Of a stretch of DNA of 64,000 nt, positions 4,035 to 26,650 are shown in pieces. How positions within the stretch are numbered: the first letter of the stretch is position 1; each line of letters opens with the position of its first letter. Source of the DNA: a virus. Lineage: Duplodnaviria; Caudoviricetes. The notes beneath the pieces are model-generated. The model was given only the letters and a program-made list of their open reading frames with translations, searched no databases and was not told the origin of the DNA. The position numbers were made by a program, and so were the translations under genes. The stretch spans positions 75,525 through 139,524 of IMG/VR virus record IMGVR_UViG_3300033463_000027; one strand, 5' to 3'.

Positions 4035-5267
4035 ATGAAAACAACAATGACTATTACTGCGGAGAACTTTAAGAGGGCTGTCAAGGCGGCTGTAAGCTGC
4101 TGCGTATATGCGACTGTCCCTGCCCTTGGTGATGTGTACATGGATATTGGCAAGAATGGGGTGTTTATAGCTTGCGACCTTGAACAGTATGTACGCTGTT
4201 CGTTTAATCCAGTGAAATACTCAGATGATACAATCGGAGTAAGTGTAGACTTTTCTATGTTGAAAAAGATTGCAGACATAAAAGGAGAAAACATCACGTT
4301 TACCTATGACGAAAGCGCAGAGCATGAACTTAAAATCTCCAATGGTAAGAAGTGTATAACTCTTGCTTGTACGCTCGTGGATAATTCGGCGGGAAGTAAC
4401 GACTTTAACAGAGAAACTTATTCTATTCCTTTTGAAATGGATAGAAAAGAAATTATGCAACTTGACAGCGAGGAACTTCTTATTACTATTAAAAACACAT
4501 CTGTGTTCACTTGTAAGACAGATATTAAGCCTATTCTGAAAGGCTATCATTTCAATGGACACGATAACGTCATTGAAACTATTGACGGGTATCATTGTGT
4601 ACGCAAAGACTGGAAAACAGGTGTGCTTAACAGTGACTACTTCGAGACTGTTGGCGAAAAACTCATAAATATTAAGAACATTTTTAATAAGAATGACGGA
4701 ATGATCACTATATATGGTGCTGAAAGTATGGAGAGTAAGCTGGACTTTGGTAAATACAAGTATACCTTGTTCAGTCTTACGGAAGGTGATATGAAAATAG
4801 AGTATGCCGTAAGAAATTTGCAAGGTGAGTTTTGTAACGTCAAGAACTCATATCCTACTACATTCCAAACATACGGAACTGCTAAAGCTGGCTCTTTGAT
4901 AGAGCTTTGCAAGGAGTATTCTAAGTTTATCAGTGAAAAAGCTCCTAATCCTATCATTTTTCATCAGGTCGATGATGTTGTGTATGCAAGTTTAAGGACA
5001 GTATCTATTAAATTCTGTGAACCTACAGAAATAAAAATAGATGGTGCTCCGCTTTCGGCAGGATATAAGAACGCATTTCTTATGGAAGGATTGAGCGTTT
5101 TTGACAAGAATGAAACGATTAACATGAAAACAAATGGAAATTTATACCCCTTGCTTATTGAGAATAACGAATATCATGTACTTGTTCTTCCAATCAGATT
5201 AGACAATGACATTATATCTGATGTTGAAAAAGATATTGCATTACTTAATAGCAAGGAGGCGGTCTGA
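4035..5267 (+). CDS. divergent DNA polymerase III beta sliding-clamp-like protein
   Basis: About 400 aa with clamp-like motifs ACDLE, KPILKGYHF, TIDGYH and C-terminal VLVLPIRL. Confidence 0.7.
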   Translation: MKTTMTITAENFKRAVKAAVSCCVYATVPALGDVYMDIGKNGVFIACDLEQYVRCSFNPVKYSDDTIGVSVDFSMLKKIADIKGENITFTYDESAEHELKISNGKKCITLACTLVDNSAGSNDFNRETYSIPFEMDRKEIMQLDSEELLITIKNTSVFTCKTDIKPILKGYHFNGHDNVIETIDGYHCVRKDWKTGVLNSDYFETVGEKLINIKNIFNKNDGMITIYGAESMESKLDFGKYKYTLFSLTEGDMKIEYAVRNLQGEFCNVKNSYPTTFQTYGTAKAGSLIELCKEYSKFISEKAPNPIIFHQVDDVVYASLRTVSIKFCEPTEIKIDGAPLSAGYKNAFLMEGLSVFDKNETINMKTNGNLYPLLIENNEYHVLVLPIRLDNDIISDVEKDIALLNSKEAV

Positions 5268-5405: not shown

Positions 5406-5756
5406 ATGAATACTGTTATACATTTCGCAGGAAGTTGTGTTGTGCATGACGATACAAAAGCATTACAGGAAACGGAATACGCTCTGTATCACACGGGGCT
5501 TTTTGAAAATAATAACGTAAGTATTATTGAGGTTACGTGTGGAGAACTTGCACAGAATCGGATTGTAACTCAGACTCGCCGTGAAGCTGACCTATTGGGA
5601 AATGGAATCCTTGCCCTTATCAAACAGACAGATGAAGCTATATGTGCTTTAAATGGAAACTGTGCAAAGGCAGCAATTGAGATAGCAGATTATCGGAGAG
5701 AGTTAATTGAGTTGCTTGATAAGATTAGGAGTTTGGAAAAGGAAAGTGACGAATAA
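5406..5756 (+). CDS. hypothetical protein
   Basis: GGAGG RBS. Confidence 0.65.
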   Translation: MNTVIHFAGSCVVHDDTKALQETEYALYHTGLFENNNVSIIEVTCGELAQNRIVTQTRREADLLGNGILALIKQTDEAICALNGNCAKAAIEIADYRRELIELLDKIRSLEKESDE

Positions 5757-5760
5757 TCCC

Positions 5761-5789
5761 TTGACAATCAAGGGATAATATGTTAAAAT
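5761..5789 (+). promoter_or_regulatory. sigma-A promoter
   Basis: TTGACA-17 bp-TAAAAT with extended TG. Confidence 0.8.
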
Positions 5790-5812
5790 TAACATCAAAG
5801 GAGTGTTGTTTT

Positions 5813-6118
5813 ATGCGCAAATGGAAATACAAGTTGTTCACAGGCAAGGCTTTGAGAGAAGCTATAAGAGAGGATAGTAATGAAGCTACTTTAGAAGCGT
5901 TAAGGACTTGCTATAGGGAAATTCATAGGGCAATGCCTGATTGGTATGACGAAGATGATCTGGAAAACGACTGTGCAGAGATTGATAATCAGTTAGATAA
6001 CTGTAACAATTATGTTGATTATGATATGACTGAGGACGATGTTCAGAATGAAATTAACTATTTACTCAGAGACTTTTATGACTTCTGTGATTGTAATGGT
6101 ATTTGGGTAGGACTGTAA
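5813..6118 (+). CDS. hypothetical acidic protein (paralog of pseudogene at 15588)
   Basis: AAGGAG RBS; ATG 5813 lies downstream of the promoter. Confidence 0.75.
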   Translation: MRKWKYKLFTGKALREAIREDSNEATLEALRTCYREIHRAMPDWYDEDDLENDCAEIDNQLDNCNNYVDYDMTEDDVQNEINYLLRDFYDFCDCNGIWVGL

Positions 6119-10133: not shown

Positions 10134-10427
10134 GTCAATAACTCACTGCTTATAGAAGCAGGAGCTTGTAAATGCTCAAATTGACTACCCTAAGTTCTTC
10201 AAGAACTACGTTATGCAAGAATTGTATAAGTTCTTTTATACTAAATAGTTACCCGTGAGCGTTATGCCTAACTTGCGGCTCTAAGGCAAATGGTTAAATA
10301 GTTCTGTGGAGTAGGAACAGTGCTGTTCGCAGTAAAACCTTGCAATAACATTGGGGAAGGCATTTAACAGCTTTGTATGTGCTGTCTTACAGAGTAGAAC
10401 ATACAATTTGACTGAAAGGAGTGTTTT
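10134..10427 (+). ncRNA. omegaRNA scaffold upstream of iscB
   Basis: About 290-nt non-coding leader with typical TTGACTA, CTACGTTA, GCTCTAAGG and AACATTGGGGAAGG segments. Confidence 0.8.
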
Positions 10428-11713
10428 TTGGTGGTATATGTGATAAACAAAAACGGACAGCCGCTTATGCCAACCGAGAGACACGGTAAAGTGAGACGAT
10501 TGCTTAAAATAGGAAAGGCTAAAGTAATCAAACGCTGTCCGTTTACTATTCAGCTTCTTTATGCTACGACTGATTTTGTACAAGAAGTCACTTTGGGAGT
10601 AGATAGTGGGAGTAAGCATATTGGAGTATCAGCGACAACAAAAGACAAAGTTTTGTATGAAGCTGATATAGAGCTTAGAAACGATATTGTCAAGCTGTTA
10701 TCTGCAAGAAGAGAGGCAAGACGTACAAGGCGCAATAGAAAAACTCGTTACAGACAGGCTCGGTTTAACAACCGCAGTAAGCCCGATGGTTGGCTTGCCC
10801 CGTCAGTGCAACACAAGGTCGATGCTCATTTGACTGTCGTTCGTAAAGTGTATGAGATTCTTCCAATTGCAAAAATCATAGTCGAGGTTGCTTCTTTTGA
10901 TATTCAGAAAATCAAAAATCCATATATTAAGGGAGAAGAATATCAGCAAGGTGAACAGCTTGATTTCTGGAACGTAAGAGAGTATGTGCTTTTCAGAGAT
11001 AGTCATGTGTGTCAGTGTTGCAAGGGCAAATCAAAAGATAATATTCTCAATGTACATCACATAGAATCACGGCAGACAGGCGGGGATGCTCCCAATAACC
11101 TTATCACTCTCTGCGAGACCTGCCATTTAGGGTATCATAAAGGGACTGTGAAACTTCCAAAGACCATAAAGCGGGGGATGTCTTTTAGAGATGCAGCTTT
11201 CATGGGAATAATGCGATGGGCGTTTTACAATAAACTTAAATATATATATCCGAACGTTAATCTGACTTACGGATATATCACCAAAAACGCCCGTATTAAA
11301 AACACTCTTTCCAAAAGCCACTTTACAGATGCAAGGTGCATAAGCGGAAATCCGAAAGCTGTATCCGATGATGTAGTTTTCTATCAGAAAAAAGCCAGAT
11401 GTCATAACAGACAGATACATAAATACAACATACTCAAGGGCGGGTTGAAAAAGAAAAACCAAGCACCGTATGAAATGTTCGGTTTTAGGTTGTTTGACAG
11501 GGTAAAGTATCTTGGAAAAGAGTACTTTATCTTTGGTAGGAGAGCATCAGGATATTTTGATATAAGAGACTTACAAGGAAATAAGGTTAACAAAGGGAGT
11601 ATTTCCTATAAAAAGTTGACCTTTATCGAACGGGCTAAAACTTATTTAACTGAAAGGAGGAAGGAGCATTCCTCCCCGACTTTTGAAGTTGGGGTATCCT
11701 GCTCCTATTTTAG
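10134..11713 (+). mobile_element. non-autonomous IS200/IS605-superfamily IscB (OMEGA) element
   Basis: Starts GTCAA plus subterminal hairpin; ends with hairpin CCCCGACTT-TTG-AAGTTGGGG and abuts ATGAA; no tnpA. Confidence 0.88.
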
Positions 11714-11717
11714 ATGA
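10428..11717 (+). CDS. iscB: RNA-guided endonuclease IscB
   Basis: PLMP N-terminus, RuvC-I GVDSG, Arg-rich bridge helix, RuvC-II IVE, CxxC-HNH (VHHI..N..CETCH), RuvC-III HFTDA. Confidence 0.95.
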   Translation: MVVYVINKNGQPLMPTERHGKVRRLLKIGKAKVIKRCPFTIQLLYATTDFVQEVTLGVDSGSKHIGVSATTKDKVLYEADIELRNDIVKLLSARREARRTRRNRKTRYRQARFNNRSKPDGWLAPSVQHKVDAHLTVVRKVYEILPIAKIIVEVASFDIQKIKNPYIKGEEYQQGEQLDFWNVREYVLFRDSHVCQCCKGKSKDNILNVHHIESRQTGGDAPNNLITLCETCHLGYHKGTVKLPKTIKRGMSFRDAAFMGIMRWAFYNKLKYIYPNVNLTYGYITKNARIKNTLSKSHFTDARCISGNPKAVSDDVVFYQKKARCHNRQIHKYNILKGGLKKKNQAPYEMFGFRLFDRVKYLGKEYFIFGRRASGYFDIRDLQGNKVNKGSISYKKLTFIERAKTYLTERRKEHSSPTFEVGVSCSYFR

Positions 11718-11807
11718 ACTTAAAGTGATTACCATATAGTAAACGTGCGTATTATAGCGGTTCAGCGGAGTTATAAATCCGCGCATTGTCTTGAAAGGAG
11801 TATAAAT

Positions 11808-12773
11808 ATGGATAACACAGCAAGAAAGCTAACTATCAGCGGAAACAACATTGATATTTCCGTAGTCAAGTCCAAGAAAAAGGACAGAATACAATCTAAG
11901 ATTGTAACCGAGGACGAGTTCGCGGAGATTTATCGCTCTGCTGATGCGATAACTTCTGCAAAGGACATAGAAAATATGTGTCTTACGCTCTATAAAAGGG
12001 GTTATGTAGATAGCATGGTTCTCTTTATCGTTGGAACCAATATTGGCTATCGTCCTGTCGATTTACAAGCGTGGAGATGGGAGCAGATTACCGATGAAAA
12101 CGGAAACATTCTTCGGAGATTTGCTATGAACGAACACAAGACAAGCAAGATGACAGTAGTTAATTTCAATGAGACTGTTGTTAAACTTCTTACATGGTAT
12201 AGGGATTATAAAATGTCTCAACCCAAGTTTATGTGGGAGAATTATGTTTTTTCTGTAAGCATAAAAAATGCGGCAAGAAGTTATGTGTGGTATGATAAAG
12301 AAAACGATATTATCTATCACCAAGATAGGAAACATAAACAGTTGGGGCTTGTATATTATCATGAGGGCAAAAATATTATTACTTGTCCTGCGTGTGAAGT
12401 TATCGGAAACGAGAAGTATCTTAAATTGCAAAAGCCCATTACGACTGAAACTGCCAGTAACAATTTTATTGAAGCTGCGGAGAAATGCGGAATTGAGGGA
12501 CATTTTTCGTCATATACAATGCGGCAAACGTTCAGCTTTTGGTTTAGAAAAACCTTAAAAGAGGACGAAACTCTTGCAAATGTAGCTGATGAATACTTCT
12601 CGACCATGCTGCTGAGTGGATATTTTCAGCATAGCAGTTTAAAGGTCACGCAAAAACACTATATGCGAGATCAAGTTGCGTTATTCAGACAGATTGTAAA
12701 CAAGATGAACCTTGCTAAAGATTTTGTGGATTGTCTGGTCGAAAAGGATAATGCAGTACAGATGTGTTTATAA
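11808..12773 (+). CDS. tyrosine recombinase/integrase-family protein
   Basis: GYRPVDL (R), EHKT (K), YTMRQTF (HxxR variant), FQHSS..TQKHY (H, Y). Confidence 0.8.
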   Translation: MDNTARKLTISGNNIDISVVKSKKKDRIQSKIVTEDEFAEIYRSADAITSAKDIENMCLTLYKRGYVDSMVLFIVGTNIGYRPVDLQAWRWEQITDENGNILRRFAMNEHKTSKMTVVNFNETVVKLLTWYRDYKMSQPKFMWENYVFSVSIKNAARSYVWYDKENDIIYHQDRKHKQLGLVYYHEGKNIITCPACEVIGNEKYLKLQKPITTETASNNFIEAAEKCGIEGHFSSYTMRQTFSFWFRKTLKEDETLANVADEYFSTMLLSGYFQHSSLKVTQKHYMRDQVALFRQIVNKMNLAKDFVDCLVEKDNAVQMCL

Positions 12774-12834
12774 TAAGGTAGTTACCGAGGAAACTCGGAA
12801 AAATATATTAACTAAATTTTAGGAGGAATTTTTT

Positions 12835-13416
12835 ATGAAAACTTTAAAGGTTACTTGGAAAGGCACAAAGACTCTGATTATGCACTCTTGCCAGTGCGTT
12901 AATCCCCTTAATCCGATTCAAAAGGAATTGAAAAAGTACACTTCAAAAAGAACCAAAACTGATGAAGATTTACAGAGAATTTCTGATCTTGAATGGGAAG
13001 CTGGGGCTTATTGGAAAGAAGGTATGGGACTTTATATCCCCGGAGAAAATGTGATAGCAACCATTATTAATGGTGCAAAACTCTTCAAGAAGGGTACTGA
13101 TGTTCAAAAGTATGTTTCTGTTCCTAATGTGCATATTCCGTTTAATTACGGAGAAAATCTCACTAAGGAAGAACTGATTGCTGATAAAGATTATCGTGAT
13201 GTAAGACCTATGGTCGTTGGTAAGGCAAAGGTTATAAGAACAAGACCAAGATTCGATCAGTGGAATATTACTTTTAACCTTGAATATGAAGAGGATAAGA
13301 TTGACCGTGATGTTGTCATTCTTGCATTAGAAAATGCAGGAAAGTATGTGGGGCTTTGCGATAGTCGCAACTATGGCTATGGGCGATTTGTCGTAAAAGC
13401 AGAAGAGTTGGATTGA
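12835..13416 (+). CDS. stand-alone RAMP/Cas7-like protein associated with the GTT-NN array
   Basis: N-terminal strand ending LIMH, LYIPGENV motif, RTRPRF, C-terminal Gly-rich loop GKYVGLCDSRNYGYGRF; AGGAGG RBS; no other cas genes nearby. Confidence 0.78.
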   Translation: MKTLKVTWKGTKTLIMHSCQCVNPLNPIQKELKKYTSKRTKTDEDLQRISDLEWEAGAYWKEGMGLYIPGENVIATIINGAKLFKKGTDVQKYVSVPNVHIPFNYGENLTKEELIADKDYRDVRPMVVGKAKVIRTRPRFDQWNITFNLEYEEDKIDRDVVILALENAGKYVGLCDSRNYGYGRFVVKAEELD

Positions 13417-13421
13417 GATAG

Positions 13422-13854
13422 GGATTATATGTTTGGTTCTGTTCTGTTGTGTTTCGTTAGGTTCCGTTCAGTTCAGTTGCGCTAAGTTATGTATTGTAGG
13501 TTGTGTTTTGTTTCGTTAAGTCGAGTTTCGTTGTGTTGTGTTGCGTTAGGTTGGGTATTATAAGTTAAGCTCCGTTGCGTTGAGTTTAGTTGTGTTAAGT
13601 TCAGTTTGGTTGGGATAGGTATTATAAGTTAAGTTAAGATGTATTATGTTGTGTTTAGTCAGGTTGCGTTAAGCTAAGTTAAGTATTATAAGTTAGGTTC
13701 TGTTTCGTTGTATTGAGTTATGTTGGGGTTCGTTTGGTTCGGTTATGTTTGGTTGAGCTAAGTATTATAAGTTGCGCTATATTAAGTTATGTTGAGTTAG
13801 GTCAAGTTGCGTTGCGTTATGTTAAGTTGCGTTGGGTTAAGTCAAGCATTATAG
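13422..13854 (+). repeat. array of 74 GTT-NN pentamers in six units delimited by GTATTATAA-like separators; candidate guide-RNA array
   Basis: Separators at 13422, 13491, 13555, 13619, 13683, 13762, 13846; units of 12, 11, 11, 11, 14 and 15 pentamers; 59 of 74 start GTT and the other 15 differ by one base. Confidence 0.93.
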
Positions 13855-13889
13855 GCTTTGAAAAAAAATACCAAGAAAGGAAAATTATT

Positions 13890-14354
13890 ATGAATGAGTT
13901 AATCAACAATAAGACAATCGCGGAGGTTCTTGCGGAAGAAATTGATAAACTTCCCTATGAAACTGTAATCGAGCATGGACAAATAGAGTCCATCATCGGA
14001 GTTCCGAGAGGTCTGAACAAGTATGGTTCTACTATTGCAAAAGCAAAGAAGTTACTTATAGAGAAGCGGAAACATATTGAGAGTATACGGGGTGTTGGTT
14101 ATCGGATAGTCGCGCCTGATAACGTGATAGATCGTTCACTTCATCACATTAAAAGAGGTTGTAATGAAATCAAAAAAGGGCAGGAAATCTTAGATCATGC
14201 ACCTGTTAATGATATGAGTGTAGAGGGTCGTGAAGCCTATCGTAGAGTATATGACAGAGCTGTTATCCTTGATGCTGCTATGAAAGGCGCTGCCGTGGAG
14301 CTTAAAGAGCTTGCGGGTAAACGTCCTCATCCGTTTTTGTTTTGTAAGAAATGA
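13890..14354 (+). CDS. putative winged-helix DNA-binding accessory protein
   Basis: AGAAAGG RBS before ATG 13890; IESIRGVGYRIV wing-like motif followed by helical C-terminus. Confidence 0.65.
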   Translation: MNELINNKTIAEVLAEEIDKLPYETVIEHGQIESIIGVPRGLNKYGSTIAKAKKLLIEKRKHIESIRGVGYRIVAPDNVIDRSLHHIKRGCNEIKKGQEILDHAPVNDMSVEGREAYRRVYDRAVILDAAMKGAAVELKELAGKRPHPFLFCKK

Positions 14355-14551
14355 GGAATTGTTATGATAGTCTATACTGTATTTAAAACTCGATGGAATC
14401 CCGATAGTAACTATGACGAAACTTTTCTTATAGACATATATTCCAACGAACAAACAGCTATGCAAGAGTGTATTAGTTATAATAGTAGTCATGATAACAG
14501 TGAAAGTTTTTTTGTTTTATGAAGATTATACTGTCAAGGAGGACTAAAAAA

Positions 14552-15016
14552 ATGAACGAAGAAAGATATAAGAAGTGGTTTGCAGAAGCCAAAGAACAGA
14601 CTATTGAAACTCTCCCTGAGTTTATGAAAAGAATCTTGGACGAGCCACAAAGTTATGATTCTATTGTTGAAGCAATTACTGCTTGTGCGCTCGGAGCTGC
14701 TTGGGCGGCAGACCATCATGAGAATGGTGGAATCACAGGCTTTCAGGGCAGTTGGGTGATGTGGCAATTCATTAAGCACTGGATGTGCAAGGGAGATAGT
14801 TGTGGATTAAAGCTTGTTGATTATGATGATATGCTTTATCCTCAGTATGACTATAAGTTCTGCGATAAAACAATTGATAGGAGTACGTGGAAAGCCTTAC
14901 AGAAGAAAGCGGCAGAGTATTTAGCCGAGGGTCGCGGAGTTGCGGAAGTAAAAGCGCACTGGCGGTCGATTGTTAATGGCGTTGTTCCTTTTGGTTATAC
15001 AGTAAAGGAGGACTAA
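14552..15016 (+). CDS. conserved hypothetical phage protein
   Basis: AGGAGG RBS before ATG 14552. Confidence 0.7.
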   Translation: MNEERYKKWFAEAKEQTIETLPEFMKRILDEPQSYDSIVEAITACALGAAWAADHHENGGITGFQGSWVMWQFIKHWMCKGDSCGLKLVDYDDMLYPQYDYKFCDKTIDRSTWKALQKKAAEYLAEGRGVAEVKAHWRSIVNGVVPFGYTVKED

Positions 15017-25424: not shown

Positions 25425-25505
25425 GCCCCTTTGGTGGAACGGCAGACACACAGCACTCAAAATGCTGCGCCGCAAGGCATATTGGTTCGAGTCCAATAAG
25501 GGGCA
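25425..25505 (+). tRNA. tRNA-Leu(CAA)
   Basis: GCCCCTT/AAGGGGC acceptor, CAGCA-CTCAAAA-TGCTG, long variable arm, TTCGAGT T-loop. Confidence 0.92.
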
Positions 25506-25677
25506 TCGCCGAAAGAACAACAGCCACACTATCCGTGGTGATTGCGTTTGATTAGGGTGGTTAGCCGCCACAATTAATGGTTAGTCACATGGGCAAGTGG
25601 CGTGTAGAACTAAAGATGATAAGTAAAATCGTCTTTTGCTCACCTATGCCGATGATGGTTAATTCGGTGTTCTACAT

Positions 25678-25763
25678 TGGGGAATGGCGAAGTGGTTTTT
25701 AACGCAAGCGGCTTTGACCCGCTCATGAGAAATCTGTCGTGAGTTCAAATCTCACTTCCCCAA
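25678..25763 (+). tRNA. tRNA-Gln(TTG) with unusually long variable region
   Basis: TGGGGAA/TTCCCCA acceptor, AGCGG-CTTTGAC-CCGCT, GTGAG-TTCAAAT-CTCAC. Confidence 0.85.
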
Positions 25764-26111
25764 CTCTATGAATACCTCTTTTATTCTTTGCAGAGTTATT
25801 CATATTTACCTCCTATGTTCTCGGCAAGTCTTTTACGCCGAAGAGATAGTAGATGTTAAGAGATACTACCGAGAACAAACGCCTATTGTCACGCTTTACA
25901 CAAGGCGTATAAATATATAATGGAAAGGGAATGAATTATGCCGATGTTCGTTAGTGGTTTTATTCAACGGGTAGGGTTAGCTGAATAATCCCGCCCAAGA
26001 AAAGCAACACCAATCTCCTACTGGCTTATAGTCCCGATCAAACTATGAAGCAGGGCAATAGCGGAATTGCTCACCGTTTATTACTAACACAAAAGGTAGG
26101 AGATTGAGTTT

Positions 26112-26183
26112 CGGGGTGTAAGTCAATGGTAGACTGCTTGTTTTGGGAACAAGATGTTGGAAGTTCGATTCTTCTCACTCCGA
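26112..26183 (+). tRNA. tRNA-Pro(TGG)
   Basis: CGGGGTG/CACTCCG acceptor, CTTGT-TTTGGGA-ACAAG. Confidence 0.9.
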
Positions 26184-26213
26184 TTACAGTTGTAAAACTT
26201 AAAGTTTTGTTCT

Positions 26214-26286
26214 GCGCTTGTAACTCAGTCGGTAGAGTAATCGCCTTTTAAGCGATAAGTCGTGGGTTCGAGTCCCATCAGGCGCA
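26214..26286 (+). tRNA. tRNA-Lys(TTT)
   Basis: GCGCTTG/CAGGCGC acceptor, ATCGC-CTTTTAA-GCGAT. Confidence 0.92.
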
Positions 26287-26369
26287 CTTTTCTTCTCATG
26301 GTTTTTGTTTGTCATTTTGACGACGCTCCTTTTTGTCAGGTGTGGTTCTCACACAACCGCACCTGATAC

Positions 26370-26443
26370 GCTCCCTTAGACCAATTGGCAGAGTCATAGC
26401 ACTTAAAATGCTTATAGTGTGAGTTCGAGTCTCACAGGGAGTA
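26370..26443 (+). tRNA. tRNA with TAA (Leu) anticodon and short variable loop
   Basis: GCTCCCT/AGGGAGT acceptor, AGCA-CTTAAAA-TGCT, 5-nt variable loop. Confidence 0.85.
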
Positions 26444-26578
26444 TTAAGGTAGTACATTTCCGACCTATGATTGACTATCGAACAGGGAAATGGCGTAGGC
26501 ACATACGATAGAAATGTGTTGGTTGCAGGGCAGACCAAGTAAGGATATCCTTTACTAAAGATTAGTCATCAGCCCAAT

Positions 26579-26650
26579 GCTGACATAGTATAAAGGTTAT
26601 TACTGTAGATTTGTAATCTTCAAATCCCTGTTCGAGTCAGGGTGTCAGCT
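26579..26650 (+). tRNA. tRNA-Thr(TGT)
   Basis: GCTGACA/TGTCAGC acceptor, GTAGA-TTTGTAA-TCTTC with one stem mismatch, CCCTG-TTCGAGT-CAGGG. Confidence 0.85.

Follow-up and report, generated by a model that had tools for sequence, protein, structure and literature searches.

The question raised by the locus at positions 12835-14354 of the DNA studied here is whether a lone Cas7-like gene, followed by an array of five-nucleotide units built on GTT, may be a VIPR (Viral Interference Programmable Repeat) system. The window, i.e. the whole stretch of 64,000 nucleotides (nt) analysed, covers positions 75,525 to 139,524 of IMG/VR record IMGVR_UViG_3300033463_000027 (Duplodnaviria; Caudoviricetes), a virus of 139,524 bp; positions given below are those of the window. 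As described in the text of the discovery preprint, VIPR consists of a minimal phage-borne RAMP protein, of guide RNAs (vrRNAs) of 9-16 pentamers, each made of GGY and two variable bases (NN), and of vap accessory genes; its DNA targets are read as NN-x, i.e. with one base skipped, and binding represses transcription (10.64898/2026.04.26.720920). The same text allows 'a related consensus', naming NNNGG, YNNNG and NNNNG (10.64898/2026.04.26.720920), and that of a later preprint describes non-canonical trinucleotides (GAC, CAC, WGT and TGH among them) in 21 VIPR-like clusters (10.64898/2026.10.21.760802). Since a related or non-canonical consensus is accepted in these preprints, the lack of the canonical GGY in the window does not exclude VIPR membership. 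Our answer is that 12835-14354 is a complete VIPR module, carried by a phage genome of 139.5 kb: judging from sequence, we put at almost nine in ten (about 0.88) the probability that the locus is a VIPR member, made of a small Cas7-like protein, six GUU-NN pentamer guide RNAs and a predicted DNA-binding helper gene.

The vipr gene (12835-13416, + strand), preceded by a strong AGGAGG ribosome-binding site, encodes a protein of 193 amino acids with the build of a minimal RAMP, i.e. a single RRM core, a thumb and a G-loop (CDSRNYGYGRF). Its residues 66-70 read LYIPG, and a loop at the C-terminal end reads GLCDSRNYGYGRF; these are the hallmarks by which a sequence-only reading of the same DNA had singled it out. 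That reading had also pointed to a resemblance to VIPR, and this is borne out by a phmmer search of PDB sequences, in which the protein matched the 'SUSP1 Vipr protein' (PDB 36pp) with an E value of 4.8e-28 over residues 1-188 of both; the identity is about 33% over the full length. No Pfam domain was found in the window Vipr, which belongs to PHROG 4652 (function unknown; E 3.9e-49). Its AlphaFold2 model, built from 21 homologues, has a mean predicted local distance difference test score (pLDDT) of 89.5, and Foldseek matched the model best to Csm3/Cas7 subunits from effectors of types III and VII (E about 5e-5, TM about 0.5, identity 11-15%). Structure prediction followed by Foldseek was the check that the sequence-only reading had proposed, and the Csm3/Cas7 RAMP fold that it had expected is the one predicted by the model.

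In the structure of SUSP1 Vipr solved by cryo-electron microscopy (cryo-EM), the first scaffold base, G1, is contacted by H17 and D177, G2 by the thumb residue R138 and by W178, which stacks on it, and Y3 by E71, M72, R179 and others (10.64898/2026.04.26.720927). Four of these residues are conserved in the window Vipr as H17, R137, D176 and R178 (SUSP1 H17, R138, D177 and R179, respectively), while S177 stands where SUSP1 has W178, and M126 where SUSP1 has V127. Vipr homologues number more than 1,100 and include a dense clade, about 70% identical, whose members come from Lachnospiraceae genomes and from metagenomes of gut type; in each of five host genomes there was one Vipr only, and no second one. 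A single in-frame stop was observed in the vipr gene of two relatives, L005 (4001-4576, codon 18) and L012 (4001-4582, codon 44), both of which keep a full array and vap; these may be vipr-null loci that retain their vrRNAs, a sequencing error being also possible.

The array starts six bases past the vipr stop codon. The sequence-only reading had placed it a few bases beyond that stop, followed by a gene with its own ribosome-binding site, and in this it was right; it had also ascribed to the array a strict 5-nt periodicity over 433 bp, which does not hold. The GTT positions fall instead into six blocks, with position mod 5 equal to 1, 0, 4, 3, 2 and 1, the phase dropping by one per block at each 9-nt separator. 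Six units of 12, 11, 11, 11, 14 and 15 pentamers (74 in all) are thus bracketed by seven separators of the form G-N-AUU-W-U-R-D (GT-ATTATA-A and variants), each of which is one base short of two pentamers and shifts the phase by -1. On the + strand, separator 0 (GGATTATAT, 13422-13430) is followed by vrRNA unit 1 (12 GTTNN pentamers, 13431-13490), the degenerate separator 1 (GTATTGTAG, 13491-13499) by unit 2 (11 pentamers, 13500-13554), separator 2 (GTATTATAA, 13555-13563) by unit 3 (11 pentamers, 13564-13618), and separator 3 (GTATTATAA, 13619-13627) by unit 4 (11 pentamers, 13628-13682); then come separator 4 (GTATTATAA, 13683-13691) with unit 5 (14 pentamers, two of them irregular, 13692-13761), separator 5 (GTATTATAA, 13762-13770) with unit 6 (15 pentamers, 13771-13845), and separator 6 (GCATTATAG, 13846-13854), which closes the array.

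The scaffold of the 74 pentamers is G (92%), T (85%) and T (94%), with G at position 2 in 1% only; positions 4 and 5 are variable. The pattern GTT(+5)GTT was observed 43 times against an expectation of 2.6 +/- 1.7 (maximum 8) in 500 dinucleotide-preserving shuffles, and no second array of this kind was present in the 139,524-bp genome, the only other match of the scan being a 15-nt tandem repeat of no relation to it. All of 100 shuffled sequences were predicted to fold more stably than the array RNA (z +2.84), which would suit a protein-coated linear guide kept single-stranded; no Rfam family or hammerhead was found on the array. In the clade, separators (G-N-A-T-T-W-T-R-D) are preceded by a conserved G-T-T-A-R pentamer, and their spacing is 4 mod 5 in 44 of 54 cases, most commonly 54 and 64 nt, which indicates that a unit is made of k pentamers and a 9-nt element, whose length is two pentamers minus one base. 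The array of the relative L002 (4593-6517) is split by an inserted open reading frame (ORF) of 135 amino acids (4746-5153), by eye similar to a transposase N-terminus; it resumes at 5548-6018 and is followed by vap at 6071.

The third component, vap (13890-14354, + strand), has its own ribosome-binding site (AAAGGAAA) and encodes a Vap1-like protein of 154 amino acids, with a predicted winged-helix-like N-terminal domain and a long C-terminal helix. When a profile of 17 clade members was compared by hhalign with the gene directly after vipr in VpaE1 (a SUSP1-like phage), LESphi2, MakoManhole, LittleE and L013, a probability of 98.1% was obtained (E 1.3e-13, 124 columns); on this profile comparison the downstream gene is a Vap1 homologue. 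It corresponds to PHROG 5926. The AlphaFold2 model (pLDDT 84.9) shows an N-terminal H-S-H-H-S-S domain and then long helices, and its Foldseek matches are weak and mostly to winged-helix regulators of the GntR, OmpR/PhoB and MarR types, in keeping with the helix-turn-helix-like neighbour that the first inspection had seen. A similar gene lies 3' of the array in every relative examined and is syntenic in 21 loci. A TTG-start ORF at 13713-14354, which overlaps the array, was discarded as an artefact of the vap frame.

The bounds of the module were set by what the relatives, which are Lachnospiraceae prophages and gut or rumen phages, have in common: because only vipr, the array and vap are common to the loci, the module is 12835-14354. 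The flanks differ between loci, and the three components form a mobile unit, which counts in favour of VIPR. No cas domain was found by Pfam in the seven neighbouring ORFs scanned, as had been claimed at the outset, nor did a tandem-repeat scan reveal any CRISPR-like repeat-spacer array in the window. Consensus scans of 12600-14600 gave no terminator inside the module and no promoter signal above background.

Is the GTT scaffold a peculiarity of this phage? The phase of the pentamers in the relatives was set by a small hidden Markov model requiring G at position 1 and a pyrimidine at position 3, with position 2 left uninformed. An array adjoined vipr in all of the first 26 loci examined and in 88 of 92 in a widened sample, so that the adjacency of homologues and pentamer arrays, another check suggested by the sequence-only reading, was found to be nearly general. 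Scaffold position 2 was G in 54-100% of the pentamers in 69/69 loci with W, Y, M, A, H, C, K, N or Q at SUSP1 position 178; it was poor in G (1-25%) and dominated by T (40-87%) in all 19 array-bearing loci with Ser at 178, the window included. The two scaffold classes were perfectly separated by two alignment columns only, namely 178 (Ser) and 127 (Met vs Val), and the former is the G2-stacking residue of the solved SUSP1 structure. Ser at this position in the clade agrees with the changed scaffold base, and the distinct scaffold variant noticed in the window is a property of the clade.

A tree built with FastTree places the GGY-type L008 (Tyr) as the sister of the main Ser clade (support 0.93), with another Ser group, L009-L011, falling outside; scaffold and pocket would accordingly have changed together at least twice, the deeper node of the tree being unresolved. 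On these sequence comparisons, Ser at 178 marks the switch and is a candidate for what determines it, but it is not proven to be the cause. It is conceivable, though we hold it to be rather doubtful, that a natural switch of specificity lies behind the G-U-U (G-H-U) scaffold and the Ser at the G2-stacking position (with Met127), and that it renders the clade orthogonal to vrRNAs of GGY type. Selection for such a switch could have come from rival phages or satellites that hijack or decoy Vipr with solo vrRNAs. If this were true, the guide scaffold accepted by Vipr would be set by two residues, and one cell could host several VIPR channels that work independently. S177 and M126 of the window Vipr are the candidate residues for scaffold specificity, which would be of use for orthogonal VIPR tools, and the locus offers a natural example of a joint change in a fixed scaffold base and in the protein pocket reading it.

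The variable bases behave differently from the scaffold. The Vipr proteins of L009, L010 and L011 are 98.5-99.5% identical and their arrays have one guide only in common, i.e. the NN content turns over while the scaffold stays fixed. One guide, AG-GT-GG-TT-CC-TG-GG-TT-AG, is identical in three otherwise reshuffled arrays (L009:5002, L010:4835 and L012:4909), which hints at a target under steady selection.

When 85 usable guides from the loci were searched against all loci, with 0 to 3 target bases skipped per pentamer, one match stood out. Unit 1 of L021 (an uncultured Dorea prophage whose Vipr is of the Ser type) agrees at 31 of 34 positions with the antisense strand of L004 vipr, over codons 14-30, when a skip of 1 is applied, compared with 22.2 +/- 0.7 (maximum 24) when the order of the pentamers was permuted, and with 24 and 22 at skips of 0 and 2, respectively. 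The skipped target bases coincide with wobble positions. The guide matches most vipr genes of the Ser clade at 26-31 of 34 positions and its own vipr at 23/34 only; the site in the window vipr (12874-12923, - strand, codons 14-30, LIMHSCQCVNPLNPIQ) is matched at 29/34, again with a 1-nt skip. Judging from this match, the 1-nt-skip rule is valid for the G-N-U clade too. In a hand count, scaffold position 2 of the L021 guide copied the skipped target base in 6/16 cases, which is not significant.

As for the six guides of the window, their NN strings fit positions 1-2 of sense codons best (log-likelihood -198.6, against -203.0 or worse for the other registers and the genome background; n = 74), which is suggestive only. 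Their targets were sought in several places. In their own genome (139.5 kb), the best NN-x match was 21/30, no better than the controls with skips of 0, 2 and 3, and in 219 fetched loci (1.67 Mb) the matches were at chance level only. Exact seeds searched in IMG/VR gave no matches for units 1 and 2, three matches for unit 3, all in one locus and with failing flanks, and 110 for unit 6, the best of which (23/30) was at chance level. The unit 2 seed had 17 matches in JGI/ENA metagenomes, with flank agreement as expected by chance; a peptide common to these matches, [FL]SK[DE]SVVA, was dismissed as uninformative, being imposed by the pattern itself. Only chance-level matches were obtained for unit 6 in 401 Lachnospiraceae genomes with up to 3 mismatches, and for unit 2 in the genomes or records of 22 relatives. 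Since sampling of rumen and gut phages is sparse and exact seeds were required in most of the scans, these null results say little either way.

The proposed mechanism, whose four steps are all drawn from homology, would run as follows. The vipr gene, the array and vap are probably co-transcribed, and from the array RNA would come six vrRNAs, each 11-15 pentamers long and marked off by the AU-rich 9-nt separators. Vipr protomers would polymerise along each vrRNA, one per pentamer, with the constant G-U-U buried and the two variable bases exposed; this is the arrangement that the sequence-only reading had imagined, and the VIPR preprints show it for GGY/NN, so by analogy it may be expected here as well. 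The exposed NN would pair with double-stranded DNA reading NN-x-NN-x, one target base being skipped per pentamer, and the filament might block transcription in a competing phage, a satellite or a rival VIPR locus, assisted by the winged-helix Vap1-like protein.

Several points weigh against this picture. Expression and binding at the window locus are predicted by analogy, processing of the array RNA at the separators is purely conjectural, and a target for the six guides was found nowhere above chance in the searches described. As regards the scaffold, the non-aromatic residues A, M, C, K, Q and N at 178 are likewise accompanied by G2, and Ser may thus not suffice to explain the switch; moreover, the Ser clade is nearly monophyletic, and the covariation thus rests on few independent events.

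Three other explanations were weighed. It seems to us improbable that, in this clade, the filament has RNA as its main target, i.e. messenger RNA (mRNA) that it would silence or mask, instead of double-stranded DNA. VIPR can hold an RNA target in a gapped duplex, as seen in the cryo-EM preprint (10.64898/2026.04.26.720927), and the only clade guide with a clear target, that of L021, is antisense to vipr mRNA; however, most filaments stay incomplete on RNA targets, and silencing is linked to the DNA triplex (10.64898/2026.04.26.720927), while the published targets lie on both strands (10.64898/2026.04.26.720920). In addition, the NN strings of the window resemble sense codons, so that most of its guides could not pair with mRNA. 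If, on the other hand, the array worked as DNA, i.e. as iteron-like binding sites for the winged-helix Vap or for Vipr, its periodicity would reflect protein-DNA phasing, and the predicted DNA-binding fold of the neighbouring gene would fit. Yet the arrays of SUSP1 and of Pseudomonas fulva, which have homologous Vipr proteins, are transcribed and co-purify with Vipr (10.64898/2026.04.26.720920), the G-rich strand is always the same strand as vipr, and neither fast NN turnover on a fixed scaffold nor a guide that encodes a gapped copy of a rival gene is expected of binding sites, all of which makes this explanation very unlikely.

We give equally little credence to the idea of a VIPR remnant at this locus, decaying or inactive, in which GTT arose by mutational drift from GGY. 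The window vipr and vap are intact, the conservation of the scaffold is high (92/85/94%), and the U-rich position 2 is common to 19/19 Ser-type array loci whose proteins differ by up to 45%, whereas drift would not converge on one base; the idea would account for the in-frame vipr stops in L005 and L012 and for window guides without targets found. A VIPR module with a changed scaffold is the reading that we retain.

Other features of the same phage were considered and left out of the module. Neither the integrase-like gene nor the IscB-like gene nor any downstream ORF was accepted as part of the module, because none of them is common to the VIPR loci of the relatives. Directly upstream of vipr lies a tyrosine-recombinase-like ORF of 342 amino acids (11745-12773, + strand; Phage_integrase 1.9e-06, PHROG 216 integrase 2.3e-21). 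An OMEGA/IscB RNA-guided nuclease element is found about 1.1 kb upstream of the VIPR module (10134-11717, + strand), made of a HEARO/omega RNA (Rfam RF02033, 108.6 bits) and then an IscB-like ORF of 429 amino acids (RRXRR 1.1e-68, plus HNH). Farther away are 16.5 tandem copies of the 15-nt unit GAGCTAACTTGCGCG (1286-1532; Tandem Repeats Finder score 396, 92% matches), possibly iterons, and a cluster of six transfer RNA genes (25425-26650, + strand; Rfam tRNA, 53-73 bits).

It should be noted that VIPR systems, non-canonical scaffolds and vipr-targeting guides are already known from preprints of 2026 (April to October). GUU, which would be YNNGN in the preprint notation, is not named in the text of either 10.64898/2026.04.26.720920 or 10.64898/2026.10.21.760802, whose figures may list more. 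A homologue of the window Vipr with 69% identity is present in NCBI nr, and the clade is therefore probably inside the published PSI-BLAST set. Some details, namely the coupling of Ser with U2, the order vipr-array-vap and the shortness of the separator, may be new or may already be on record.

The closest known systems are the Type II VIPR of Escherichia phage SUSP1 and of a P. fulva prophage (10.64898/2026.04.26.720920, 10.64898/2026.04.26.720927). The window locus resembles them in its homologous Vipr, with the G1, Y3 and thumb contacts kept, in the Vap1-like accessory gene, in its carriage by a phage, and in the pentamer arrays of three fixed and two variable bases, with 9-16 pentamers; the 1-nt-skip, wobble-aligned targeting is also similar, as observed in the clade of the window (L021). 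It differs from them in the scaffold, which is G-U-U (G-H-U in the relatives) instead of G-G-Y, and its clade has Ser for W178 and Met for V127 of SUSP1 Vipr. The gene order of the clade is vipr-array-vap, whereas in SUSP1 and P. fulva it is vipr-vap-array with one upstream vrRNA; the units are bounded by a 9-nt separator, whereas SUSP1-type vrRNAs have a conserved pseudoknot tail of about 40 nt; and the hosts, unlike those of the SUSP1 and P. fulva systems, are Lachnospiraceae-type Firmicutes of gut or rumen. Back-to-back vrRNAs with a register shift of one base recall the staggered vrRNA arrays mentioned in the legend of fig. S18 (10.64898/2026.04.26.720920), and fixed trinucleotides other than GGY beside Vipr-like folds recall the 21 clusters reported in the text of 10.64898/2026.10.21.760802.

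The L021 guide is comparable to the vipr-targeting vrRNAs of the SUSP1 family (10.64898/2026.10.15.759431) in that it is directed at early codons of a rival vipr and matches its own vipr less well; unlike these, it belongs to a clade of Lachnospiraceae prophages, to a vipr-positive element and to a G-N-U scaffold. In such a contest, the window vipr is a potential target, not an aggressor. Rivalry between VIPR systems, with guides aimed at the vipr of rivals, occurs also beyond the E. coli phages in which it was first described, and the window locus extends VIPR to a large rumen or gut phage lineage of Lachnospiraceae-type hosts; the published VIPR mechanism is left unchanged. With the Cas7/Csm3 backbone of type III and type VII CRISPR-Cas, finally, VIPR has in common the RRM-thumb-G-loop fold and polymerisation along a guide RNA with a fixed step. 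However, the VIPR locus has no CRISPR repeat-spacer array, other cas genes or second RRM, the step is 5 nt instead of 6 nt, and the guide is non-contiguous. VIPR is a newly described form of RNA recognition of DNA, which makes use of a gapped, non-contiguous code.

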